Virus record (IMG/VR): IMGVR_UViG_3300042366_000731
Coordinates: 1-34,518 of that record
DNA from: a virus
Lineage: Duplodnaviria > Caudoviricetes
Length of the DNA: 34,518 nt
Direction: 5' to 3' (one strand)
Every line of letters starts with the position of its first letter. The stretch's first letter is position 1. Below, in pieces: positions 9,366-33,472 of this stretch. The notes beneath the pieces were generated by a model, which did no database searches, was not told the DNA's origin, and saw only the letters and a program-made list of their open reading frames with translations. Made by a program: the position numbers and the translations under genes.

Positions 9366-10112
9366 TTAATACTTCTCTTCGCAGAATATTCCACACTCAA
9401 TGTTATTTTTTGACTTTCTTCCTTTAGCATCTTCTGGAATTTCATCTAGAAAATATCTAACACCTTTGTACCTAATTAGTTTTGCACTAATCATCCTAGA
9501 TTGATTGCTTCTATGTTGGTAAATTTCTGGAAATTGAGTTTTTACTAACTTCCAATACTCAACTGAAGATGACTTAACGCAACTAATGCAATTTGCATTA
9601 GGAAAGTTTAAGGAATAAATGTAGGGCAGTTTGATATTTTGATCATTGAGTATTTTAAAACAATCATCTTTAGTAATTTTTAAGTCTATTAACACAGGCA
9701 ATAAAGGTTTTTCGGTTTGTATAAACCTTTCATGCCTTTTAATCTCATCATAAGTAAATCCTAAAACTGTGTAGTCTGGCCTATGTATTTCTTCCCATAC
9801 TTGCCTTGCTTTCTTTTTAAGAAGTGACGTACATGGAGCACCTTTTATACCAGACATATATTTTTTCTTTTCCCATACCTCAACACATGACTGGTTAGGG
9901 AAATTAGGATTAACAGCAAACTCTATTTTTTGACCCAACCATTTTTCAACGTCTTTTAAAAATCTTTGATTGTCTTCATGCTCTTCTTTTATTGGATTGT
10001 TTATTATTCTTATATCGTGTGTATTACCATATAGCTCAATAGTTTTTTTTGCTGCTACTGCTGAAGCAGCTCCACAAGAAAACCAAACTGCTATAAGTTT
10101 TTTATTATTCAT
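9366..10112 (-). CDS. PAPS-reductase-like (PP-loop, Cys-rich) protein
   Basis: PP-loop variant 'WFSCGAASAVA', plus 'GAPCTSLLK', 'NANCISCVK' and 'ECGIFC'. Confidence 0.75.
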   Translation of the reverse strand: MNNKKLIAVWFSCGAASAVAAKKTIELYGNTHDIRIINNPIKEEHEDNQRFLKDVEKWLGQKIEFAVNPNFPNQSCVEVWEKKKYMSGIKGAPCTSLLKKKARQVWEEIHRPDYTVLGFTYDEIKRHERFIQTEKPLLPVLIDLKITKDDCFKILNDQNIKLPYIYSLNFPNANCISCVKSSSVEYWKLVKTQFPEIYQHRSNQSRMISAKLIRYKGVRYFLDEIPEDAKGRKSKNNIECGIFCEEKY

Positions 10113-11742: not shown

Positions 11743-11832
11743 TGGCGGAGAGTTAGGGATTCGAACCCCAGGTAGACTTTCATCTACGACAGTTTTCAAA
11801 ACTGTTGCCTTAAACCACTCGACCAACTCTCC
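11743..11832 (-). tRNA. tRNA-Ser(UGA), 90 nt, CCA encoded
   Basis: Acceptor stem GGAGAGT/ACTCTCC followed by GCCA; anticodon arm ACAGT-TTTGAAA-ACTGT; long variable arm GTAGAT-GAAA-GTCTAC; T-loop TTCGAAT. Confidence 0.96.
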
Positions 11833-12053: not shown

Positions 12054-12467
12054 CTATTTGAAAAATTTAAACCTATCGTATTCAAAATTATATTTATTAA
12101 GTAAAAACCTGAGATCTTTTGTATAAAAACTAACTGTAATGTTCTTTTTAGTTTTAAAGATCTTATCCAGGATCATGTTAGCAATACCCATTCTTCTAAA
12201 TGCCATTTTAACTAGCACATAATGAAGCGTGTAATTCAAATCATAGATAGCATACCCGACTATGAATGAGGGGTCATCATCGGTACAGGCAACTAGGATA
12301 TTTATCTCGCCTGACTGAAATTTATTAATAAGGCAGTTAGATAAACCATCATGATAAATGGAGAAGCGTTCTTTCTTCCCTGTTGTGTCCTCATAAGAGG
12401 ATTTAATCATTGTAGTTAGAATGAAGTTCTTATCGTCTGGTAGGAACTCTCTTAGAATTATGTTCAC
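12054..12467 (-). CDS. GNAT-fold acetyltransferase-like protein
   Basis: Acetyl-CoA binding motif A 'HYVLVKMAFRRMGIA' preceded by 'IVGYAI'. Confidence 0.75.
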   Translation of the reverse strand: MNIILREFLPDDKNFILTTMIKSSYEDTTGKKERFSIYHDGLSNCLINKFQSGEINILVACTDDDPSFIVGYAIYDLNYTLHYVLVKMAFRRMGIANMILDKIFKTKKNITVSFYTKDLRFLLNKYNFEYDRFKFFK

Positions 12468-14498: not shown

Positions 14499-14906
14499 TT
14501 ATTTTTTAGGAAAAAAATCCATCCACATTTTGCTTACGTTCTTTTGGTTAAATGGCTTCCAAGAACATTTTTTCGTCATTCCATAACGCTTTCTTGTAAG
14601 GTTTGATTTAAGTTTATTGCAATCAACACAAAGAATTTGAAGATTTATTAACTTTAAAGCTCTTGATGGGTTAGTTGACAATGGCCTTATATGATCAATT
14701 TGCAAACTGTCTTTTGATTTACAATATGAACATTCATTTTCATAATTATTTAGTATGTAACTTCTAACACTTTTCCATATGTCAGAATTAAAGAAAATAT
14801 TTTTTCTTTCTTTACTAATATCAAACTGGTTTCTTTGTATTAATACTTTTTTCTTAATTAAATCCGAATGTTCTTTTGTAACTAAAAACTCTTTTATTCT
14901 ATTCAT
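14499..14906 (-). CDS. HNH endonuclease (zinc-binding, small phage type)
   Basis: 'CSYC...LQIDHIRPLS...NLQILCVDCN'. Confidence 0.88.
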   Translation of the reverse strand: MNRIKEFLVTKEHSDLIKKKVLIQRNQFDISKERKNIFFNSDIWKSVRSYILNNYENECSYCKSKDSLQIDHIRPLSTNPSRALKLINLQILCVDCNKLKSNLTRKRYGMTKKCSWKPFNQKNVSKMWMDFFPKK

Positions 14907-14919
14907 AGTAAATTGCTTT

Positions 14920-15136
14920 TTGGAGAGCAGGAATGAAAAAAGAACTAAGACAAAAACAATCTAGTTAAAATTAATAACTGATTTATCTGTCCTGTCTTCA
15001 ATCCCTGCTATAACCGAGCTTTGCTTCTCGGAGCCGCAGTTTATGAACCCACTTGCTACTCTTAACCCTAACCATGTGCAACCTTTCCAATTGGCAAGGA
15101 GTACGGAGAAATGGGAATCCCGTAGGGCTGCCCTGT
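14920..15136 (-). ncRNA. Candidate structured non-coding RNA or leader of unknown family
   Basis: Several helices, including an 82-nt imperfect hairpin (14927-15008) whose wobble pairs are G-U only on the minus strand. TATAAT at 15146-15141 lies just upstream. Hand count gives about 49% GC over 15001-15140 against AT-rich flanks. Confidence 0.55.
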
Positions 15137-15173
15137 ATTTATTATACAATTACCCCAAAAAGTAAATTAAATA

Positions 15174-15202
15174 TTTACAATTTAGTTAAGTTAGGGTATA
15201 AG
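15174..15202 (+). promoter_or_regulatory. Sigma70-type promoter for the plus-strand operon
   Basis: TTTACA (15174-15179), 17-nt spacer, TATAAG (15197-15202), at the divergence point. Confidence 0.6.
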
Positions 15203-32222: not shown

Positions 32223-33131
32223 TTAACCTTTCTTTTCTAACTTTTTAGTTCTTTGGTTTAATTCAGCTATAGCAGCAAATAAAGGTGCCATGCCTTGTCC
32301 GTAATCAACCATCTTTCCCTCAGGCCCATCAACTACCATTTGCTTTCCGAGTTTAGATTTCTCTAGGTCCTGCGCCATAACAGAAGTGACTTTACCCTCT
32401 GGGTTTTTCTGACCATTATTTTCTTTATCTTTATAATTGTATGTGTAGCTTTTAAGAGCGTCTAAAAACTCTTCAACCATTTCAGAACCAGATTTTTCTG
32501 ATTGATTCATATTTTCTTTTAGTGACACGTCTGAGTTTGGTCCTGCGGCTCCACCGCCTGACATTGCCTTAGCTCCACTGCTTGCTAAATTTGAAATAAA
32601 TTCAGACCTCATTCTTGAACCTGCTAATCCTGCTTCTAGGTTTGCCTGAGCAGCACCAAGCGCAACACCTCTTTGTGCAGCTGCTTGTCGCATTAATTGT
32701 TCACTAGCAGCTCTAATTTCTTGCTCTTTAGCTATTGCTGATTGCGCACCTAAGTCAATGCCTGCTTCTTTGCCTGCCTGCATTGCTTCCCTTTGTGCAA
32801 GTCCTACGTTTGACATACCACGAGCAGAAGCAGCTGCGCCTAGTTGTTGTTTTGATAAATCCTGCATAGCTTTTTGAAATTGCATTTCAGTAACAGAAGG
32901 AGATTTTCCTGAAGCAATATCACGAAACCTTTGAAGTGCTTCTTTTTCACCTTCAAGAGCATCTTTCGTAAGTTTAAATTGACCCATTCCTGCAAGTTTG
33001 GTTTCTGGATTAATACCTAAAAATCCACCAATTTTTTGACCAGTTTCTTCTATGCCCCCTAATCCACCGCCTAAAACTGTCGATATTCCACCAGTTGCAA
33101 CACCGGTAACTACCTTTCCTGCGCTTCCCAT
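32223..33131 (-). CDS. Ejection / pilot-like protein with C-terminal Peptidase_S74-like chaperone domain
   Basis: G/A/Q-rich N-part; then 'SDVSLKEN', 'YTYNYK', 'VMAQDLE', 'VDY' and 'AAIAELNQRTKKLE'. Confidence 0.78.
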   Translation of the reverse strand: MGSAGKVVTGVATGGISTVLGGGLGGIEETGQKIGGFLGINPETKLAGMGQFKLTKDALEGEKEALQRFRDIASGKSPSVTEMQFQKAMQDLSKQQLGAAASARGMSNVGLAQREAMQAGKEAGIDLGAQSAIAKEQEIRAASEQLMRQAAAQRGVALGAAQANLEAGLAGSRMRSEFISNLASSGAKAMSGGGAAGPNSDVSLKENMNQSEKSGSEMVEEFLDALKSYTYNYKDKENNGQKNPEGKVTSVMAQDLEKSKLGKQMVVDGPEGKMVDYGQGMAPLFAAIAELNQRTKKLEKKG

Positions 33132-33472
33132 ATAATTTCCTTAGCTAATTTAATTTCTTTTTCGTCAGCTCCAACTATTTTAAACCCTTTTAACATTTGA
33201 GCAAGAAGTGCTTCATGTAATCCATTGCTATTAATCTGAACTGCACTTAACACGTATTTAATTTTCTTTGCCCAAGCAATAATCTCAATCTGTTTTAATA
33301 GATCCGATCCTATGCCTTTACGTCTGTGATCTTTATCAATGTACATATCATGAATATAAACATGATCGGATAACAGAGAATATGAAACAAACCCATAATC
33401 ATGCTCAATAAGTTCAATGTTAGCTTTCTCTTTAATGTAATTTGCATACTTAGTAAGACTTGTTTGGTGCAA
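33110..33472 (-). CDS. GNAT-fold acetyltransferase (position of T7 gp13)
   Basis: 'YIHDMYIDKDHRRKGIGSDLL' motif A and 'GFK'. Confidence 0.82.
   Translation of the reverse strand: MHQTSLTKYANYIKEKANIELIEHDYGFVSYSLLSDHVYIHDMYIDKDHRRKGIGSDLLKQIEIIAWAKKIKYVLSAVQINSNGLHEALLAQMLKGFKIVGADEKEIKLAKEIIWEAQER

Follow-up and report, generated by a model that had tools for sequence, protein, structure and literature searches.

ColE1 RNA has an upstream G-tract that, close to the origin, base-pairs with the template strand, and its switch point is marked by an A-run. Replication started by RNA and free of an initiator protein is described, in the available parts of the papers, for ColE1 (PMC5043065) and for the MRB plasmids (PMC3035462). 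Structured RNAs of roughly 220-500 nt are likewise tied to Rep-less or Rep-dispensable replication in the available text on MRB replicons (PMC3035462) and on ARRPOF, PAGEV and GEBRO (PMC5737381, PMC12990946), all of which are plasmid elements. The R-loops of T4 oriF and oriG are, in the portion of the source at hand, sequence-independent and serve a phage-encoded replisome (PMC3016281). The replicon in the accessible part of PMC12753305 is protein-dependent and not relevant to the element described here.

This element lies in a phage genome that we call the window (the whole stretch analysed, a complete 34,518-bp record with terminal repeats). A first-pass annotation had noticed it as a structured non-coding RNA candidate, and the sequence words given there were all found in place. 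Comparative analysis suggests, with a probability of about two in three, that it is a cis-acting replication-origin RNA standing in for an initiator protein: the transcript would persist as a hybrid with its template at the second of two repeats and open the AT-rich DNA behind it, in a manner like that of ColE1 RNA II but not homologous to it. It shares with RNA II, as presented in the parts of PMC5043065 available, the lack of an initiator protein, an upstream promoter, a structured transcript that can fold in alternative ways and an RNA-DNA hybrid proposed to persist. It differs in being 225 nt long, not 550, and in belonging to a phage, not a plasmid; Rfam scans gave no RNA II or RNA I homology, no conserved antisense RNA I or Rop was seen, and relatives keep helicase-loading parts. 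Membership of the ColE1 family, a link raised in the first-pass annotation, thus finds no support from Rfam, sequence matching or antisense RNA. ARRPOF is similar in size and richness in pseudoknots, according to the available parts of its descriptions (PMC5737381, PMC12990946). However, the window RNA has no Rfam match to MRB, ARRPOF, PAGEV or GEBRO, and those parts of their descriptions that are available make no mention of a module of tandem repeats. The arrangement given for T4 oriF in the available part of PMC3016281, a promoter and then an A+T-rich unwinding element, has a putative counterpart here in sequence features; unlike at oriF/oriG as described there, the RNA fold and the repeats are conserved, and no phage replisome is detectable. 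The parts of the element, of which helices P1, P2 and P3 and the direct repeat go beyond the first reading, are as follows.

15135-14911, minus strand: whole structured RNA candidate, ~225 nt (fold z-score, covariation, covariance-model search).
15138..15184, minus strand: promoter block, with TTTACT at 15166-15161, TATAAT at 15146-15141 and a predicted start just 5' of P1 (conservation, sigma-70-like score).
15078..15131, minus strand: helix P1, 15131-15126 with 15083-15078 (covariation).
15103..15123, minus strand: Pa hairpin, the TACGG/CCGTA hairpin of the earlier reading, 15123-15120 with 15106-15103 (covariation).
15065..15101, minus strand: P2, a pseudoknot crossing P1, 15101-15092 with 15074-15065 (covariation).
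15048..15115, minus strand: P3, the second pseudoknot, 15115-15109 with 15054-15048 (covariation).
15022..15039, minus strand: repeat copy 1, CTGC-GG-CTCC-GAGAAGCA (sequence; concerted change with copy 2).
15005..15015, minus strand: switch strand GGTTATAGCAG, which can pair with copy 1 or copy 2 (covariation; truncated-transcript folding).
14927..15008, minus strand: long three-segment hairpin between the repeats (covariation).
14914..14930, minus strand: repeat copy 2, CTGC-T-CTCC-AAAAAGCA, the predicted RNA-DNA hybrid site (sequence; putative role).
14874..14913, minus strand: AT-rich stretch (82.5% AT) 3' of copy 2, a candidate unwinding element (composition).
14499..14906, minus strand: small HNH endonuclease, 135 aa (PF01844, E 5e-10).

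The AT-rich stretch (14874..14913) overlaps the start of the HNH gene, whose ATG indeed lies 20 nt 3' of the long hairpin. GC content over 15001-15140, put at ~49% by hand count, was computed as 0.493, against 0.369 for the genome. Folding of the minus strand as RNA is better than that of shuffled sequences (z -2.57), as a functional RNA was expected to be, and the plus strand as RNA does no better than shuffles (z -0.56), nor does the minus strand when folded with DNA parameters (z -0.34). A 62-aa ORF across the region was rejected as a coding gene: codon-level conservation, which had been named as evidence against an RNA, is absent, and in the 13 homologues the frame meets its first stop after 12-57 codons.

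By protein and pattern searches, 13 distinct homologues were recovered in full, the six closest and seven of a second subgroup, which were counted separately because MAFFT puts P1 and P3 out of register between the subgroups. In the six closest, pairing is kept at 94% over a structure of 57 pairs, of which 25 show two-sided changes (13 expected; 0/500 shuffles), compared with at most 8 in a partner-slide control that leans in favour of the structure, since this was drawn by eye from the same sequences. In the seven others, 13/22 pairs of the 5' domain change on both sides (1/500 shuffles); the relatedness of the sequences means that these shuffle counts overstate significance. The 5' ~90 nt comprise P1, Pa and the two pseudoknots, and the loop of Pa contains the 5' strand of P3. 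For the six closest and the second subgroup respectively, P1 is 100% and 93% paired (2/6 and 3/6 pairs two-sided) and P2 is 93% and 88% paired (2/9 and 1/5); P3 is 100% paired, with 5/7 two-sided pairs in each. Covariation thus establishes the fold as far as comparison of related sequences can, and the proposal of a structured functional RNA is well supported.

Most helices of the first reading are retained. The four pairs of TACGG/CCGTA are 100% paired, with 3/4 and 4/4 two-sided in the two subgroups, and the long hairpin, whose length differs among phages, has 31 pairs, 90-93% paired, with 13 two-sided in the six closest. The alternative GCAG/CTGC pairing is 96% paired with one two-sided change. 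Of the proposed CCGAG/CTCGG hairpin, the invariant CC/GG pairs stand and the remainder is not fully kept (80% overall). The CTTGC/GCAAG helix was rejected, as its pairing is kept in 67% only and its bases belong to two pseudoknot helices. A covariance model built from the first group alone found six second-group members at E 1e-12 to 1e-18 and matched L001 and L003 weakly. Single-sequence minimum-free-energy (MFE) folding, in a model that cannot form pseudoknots, fails for both of these (z +1.1 and +0.15). The window RNA had no match in Rfam scans, either by gathering score or at E<=10, and blastn against cultured phages gave three short chance matches. The ~225-nt RNA is real as a structured candidate, and its double-pseudoknot 5' domain is absent from Rfam and uncatalogued.

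Pfam and PHROG scans of the 52 ORFs of the window identified head, tail, methylase, ERF, SSB, nuclease and amidase genes and no initiator, helicase, primase or polymerase. Seven replication families and Pfam DNA_pol_A were also negative when searched in all six frames, and purpose-built initiator and loader profiles had no match; a phrog_16 match was rejected as a helicase because it lies inside the methylase gene. The earlier observation that the phage has no replication genes therefore holds for the families screened and, within their sensitivity, the window resembles a ColE1-type replicon in encoding no initiator. The element stands at the start of the leftward operon and faces the ERF/SSB block on the opposite side. 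Cumulative and third-position GC skew were uninformative for origin location, and third-position skew did not separate carriers of the element from G026.

What fills this position in sister phages is informative. The promoter block is common to them whatever follows it (90-96% identical in L001, L002, L003 and L024). In L002, whose flanks are 92-99% identical to the window ERF, SSB and p118, the RNA is absent: the shared promoter block leads into the gene of a 188-aa protein, and the shared 67-aa gene comes next. The nearest Atlas clusters of the 188-aa protein are Phage_rep_org_N (0.96), and A-rich repeats lie inside its gene. L038 has a 72% homologue of this protein between the same flanks. 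In L048/G026, the slot holds a second, different initiator-like family with PF09524 carriers among its homologues, and a lambda-P/G39P-like loader comes next. This loader is kept at 71% identity in G006, with the RNA where the initiator would be, and P/G39P-like loaders are retained in G004, G006, G022 and G024. In a TerL tree of 13 rows, L048 nests among RNA carriers (100/98) and L038 belongs to the unresolved group that contains the window, so at least two initiator families took part in the swap, in either direction. Sequence comparison thus gives strong support to replacement of an initiator protein by this RNA, with the slot swapped in sisters and the DNA-binding half of the initiator lost elsewhere (see below). 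In the sister phage G027, an unrelated ~430-nt non-coding stretch (L247:16920-17345, minus strand), in which the word ACAAACCTGAG recurs, occupies the same slot with an HNH gene behind it (single-sequence MFE z -0.86, in a model that cannot form pseudoknots).

The best-surviving alternative, disfavoured and unlikely in our estimate, is a put-like antitermination or translational leader of the long leftward operon, with the two folds as an on/off switch. An operon of >14 kb has the element as its 5' end, the annotated ORFs include no Q-like antiterminator, and the two exclusive folds are conserved. However, initiator-bearing sisters run this downstream operon too and do so without the RNA, and the genes downstream vary widely (HNH, exonuclease, methylase, capsid). 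A leader would also leave the loss of the initiator N-domain and the concerted repeats unexplained.

A replication-origin RNA taking the place of an initiator is also in line with the genome-wide distribution. Among records at least 90% complete, a full initiator was found in 2/16 carriers and 5/7 non-carriers (Fisher p 0.011), six of the seven non-carriers being unrelated ERF relatives and not matched sisters. Counting an initiator or a helicase/primase module, the figures are 3/16 and 7/7 (p 0.0005); the third carrier has an SF2 helicase, and the two non-carriers without an initiator have a primase-helicase pair. These counts indicate a near exclusion of full-length initiators, as judged from a PHROG scan of 146 hand-picked non-structural ORFs out of 1455 called and from six-frame family searches, which were used because ORF calling missed the G030 initiator and by which alone G041, G043 and G044 were screened. 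Detection of initiators is imperfect, since the initiator-like gene of G026 has no PHROG match. The two carriers with a full initiator, G007 (O-like plus loader) and G008 (HTH_36 protein), both have the RNA outside the slot. In G008 (L227:8739-8925), an RF02932-type element lies between the scaffold and major capsid genes, and the HTH_36 initiator-like gene is kept.

The second alternative, also unlikely, is that the RNA acts in trans or as a catalyst (a scaffold, a self-cleaving ribozyme or a host-interacting RNA) or is an HNH-homing selfish element, with its slot position incidental. The compact double pseudoknot resembles a tertiary fold, the related element of G008 lies among structural genes, and HNH genes come after several unrelated RNAs. 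Against this, complete carriers would have no means to initiate replication, several unrelated non-coding families occupy the same slot, and no Rfam ribozyme family is matched by the window-type or tested related loci.

Returning to an RNA in place of an initiator, remnants of the protein point the same way. Nine carriers match only the C-terminal part of phrog_9327, in frames of 127-187 codons, and five non-carriers match its N-terminal part, in frames of 221-254 codons. Longer homologues of this orphan C-domain protein carry HTH_36, Phage_rep_O or PF21984 domains, and the orphan domain lies within 2 kb of 17/56 elements; the comparison thus indicates that the DNA-binding half of the initiator was lost. 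The stand-alone ~125-aa initiator C-terminal domain (L235:2865-3239 and relatives) is common in these phages, with at least 484 confirmed stretches. Among the best 80 of the 484, a ranking that favours short forms, 50 loci had 3 kb of upstream sequence: the 3' module of the element (repeat, hairpin, repeat) is upstream in 15, another gap in seven and a full initiator in one, and 27/50 match the profile of another non-coding family (four weakly), itself built from 19 of the same 80 loci. This second family, ~260-290 nt long, follows cro and a terminator, ends in CACCCTTGGGGAA and sits upstream of the gene for the orphan C-domain, at a distance of about 300-2400 nt (L316, L320, L339, L341, L353, L354, L361, L371, L373 and L379). 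In 20 loci scanned, Rfam gave no match there, and the family is likely to be an alternative RNA for the initiator slot. Helicase genes stand alongside the element in Acidovorax phage AP1 (also a primase), G010, G025, G044 and G045, so the element is not always the whole replication module; this co-occurrence suggests that origin opening is its shared job and priming is optional.

The 3' module reaches well beyond the window type. It was found at 99 further IMG/VR loci, 55 of them distinct, all genuine by eye. In two further pattern scans, 6/12 and 24/47 matches were genuine by eye, the rest being coding or without a second repeat. In a metagenome pattern scan, 3/32 matches were genuine, two of them near-identical to the window, and in GTDB 2/6 were genuine by eye. 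A Cro-like gene is upstream of 21/47 elements. Of 17 loci tested, seven match Rfam family RF02932, Betaproteobacteria-1 (80-102 bits), with the match ending just before the 3' module; other 5' domains also precede this module. Elements of the RF02932 type and of the window type are placed alike with respect to cro and the initiator slot, and the window also has the double-repeat 3' module found in phages behind the RF02932 match. In contrast, the 5' domain of the window has its own double pseudoknot and no RF02932 match (nor did any window-type locus match among the 17), the Rfam model leaves out the 3' module, and the window-type covariance model does not match RF02932-type loci. Rfam types RF02932 as "Gene; sRNA" and gives no function. 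A literature search with the PMC5737381 supplement and PMC10690425 files 1, 2 and 4 lying outside it found neither a paper on the window element nor a function for Betaproteobacteria-1, and the repeat word was not found in the text parts and six supplementary files of PMC10690425 that were available.

Several loci of this wider family deserve mention. The cultured Acidovorax phage AP1 (OM049504) has an unannotated RF02932-like element with altered repeats (L212:11850-12060) right after its helicase and primase genes. Another is in a Giesbergeria MAG chromosome (L273:3880-4074), near a probable serine recombinase gene and with no obvious phage genes in the flanks read. One contig with the 3' module is binned as Bacteriovorax, a weak hint of a host, and the L069 RNA has one Burkholderia match in a plasmid collection. 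L349, L369, L372, L058, L075, L086, L114 and L272 have yet other distinct 5' domains or non-coding families, placed either in the slot or ahead of the 3' module. Part of the element at L046:1-260 is an inverted duplication at a contig end, probably a misassembly.

The direct repeats are the feature most suggestive of mechanism. The strand 15015-15005 can pair with either copy, 15039-15022 or 14930-14914, and the GCAG/CTGC alternative belongs to this larger switch; in computed folding, truncated transcripts adopt the copy-1 form and the full-length MFE structure is a mix of both. The potential to switch is thus evident from sequence. In 20 repeat pairs, obtained via a neighbouring protein and not by pattern search, the copies match at 7.3/10 positions, compared with 5.8 for shuffled partners (0/10000), and the base after the repeat, which no pattern fixes, agrees between copies in 56/67 elements (24.6 expected) and in 10/11 window-type elements. 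Both copies are altered together in L001/L003 and in phage AP1. Mismatches with G in copy 1 and A in copy 2 outnumber the reverse by 15 to 1 (5 to 1 without position 1), an excess that would fit rG-dT wobble; unlike these, nine T>A differences would be real mismatches in a hybrid. Part of the coupling could stem from both copies pairing with the switch strand, which would not cover the purine-rich tail, where most coupling lies. The 40 nt 3' of copy 2 average 74% AT, compared with 58% in a baseline that is not one of intergenic spacers, and are higher in 55/56 elements. The sigma-70-like site scores 8.5/12 in 12 homologues (6.97 in shuffles; 0/2000 as high), and the conserved 15138..15184 site was not among the matches of a consensus promoter scan of the window.

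The third alternative, to which we give rather little weight, is that the element acts as DNA, single-stranded or in cruciform shape, to signal to primase, PriA or RNA polymerase, and that proteins bind its repeats; it would still be part of an origin. Covariation and G-T pairs fit RNA and ssDNA alike, as stated for plasmid motifs in the available part of PMC5737381, and ERF and SSB genes adjoin the element. However, its DNA folding does not exceed that of shuffles, as noted above, a promoter-like site is conserved 5-9 nt 5' of P1 in homologues, and the repeats drift in step between phages that have no cognate phage protein, which is most simply explained by nucleic-acid pairing.

The origin-RNA model would then operate as follows. 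Host RNA polymerase would transcribe the element and, as it passes copy 2, the switch strand would trade copy 1 for copy 2, closing the long hairpin. Freed copy 1, tethered by the compact pseudoknot domain, may pair with the template strand of copy 2 and anchor an R-loop that would spread into the AT-rich stretch. A helicase would be loaded on the R-loop, by the host system in the window phage and by a lambda-P/G39P-like loader, the orphan initiator C-domain or an SF2 helicase in relatives, and an RNA end trimmed by RNase H may prime the leading strand. A broader reading, offered tentatively and at somewhat less than even odds, is that many small dsDNA phages have swapped the origin-binding domain of the initiator for interchangeable RNA initiators: a pseudoknotted transcript would guide with one drifting repeat copy, invade its own template at the second and pass the DNA, once open, on to a loader or orphan C-domain that the phage retains, with several unrelated RNA families filling the slot and HNH nucleases helping to displace protein initiators. 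If the origin-RNA model is true, initiator-free, RNA-started replication would extend to a widespread group of dsDNA phages, many uncultured, complete phage genomes without replication genes would be explained, and the orphan family RF02932 would gain a function. Exchange of the paired repeats should switch origin specificity, and hosts without vectors could gain a compact replicon from such a protein-free origin, which is 225 nt long and has repeats that can be tuned.

In IscB-omegaRNA/HEARO systems, by definition, the RNA is always accompanied by a RuvC+HNH protein. The HNH gene of the window had been considered as a constant neighbour and its product as a partner of the RNA, but such a gene comes directly after only 6/56 elements and is therefore a passenger, likely an optional, hitch-hiking homing nuclease. 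A guide or scaffold RNA of this protein is very improbable: the gene does start 20 nt after the hairpin without a Shine-Dalgarno sequence and directly follows the element in those six cases, but 50/56 elements lack it, related HNHs follow unrelated non-coding elements in G025 and G027, the 135-aa protein has the HNH domain only, with 5h0m as its sole PDB match, and Rfam gives no HEARO match.

On the plus strand of the window, a promoter-like site at 14718-14746 and a terminator-like hairpin at 15122-15136 could yield a ~380-nt antisense transcript across the RNA. No conserved antisense RNA was evident: the hairpin is not kept in most homologues, and counts of such sites are at chance level. 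A tRNA-Ser(TGA) gene is located within the leftward operon (11743-11832, minus strand). The window also encodes two GNAT acetyltransferases and a PAPS-reductase-like protein (12054-12467, 33110-33472 and 9366-10112), which possibly have DNA or host modification functions.
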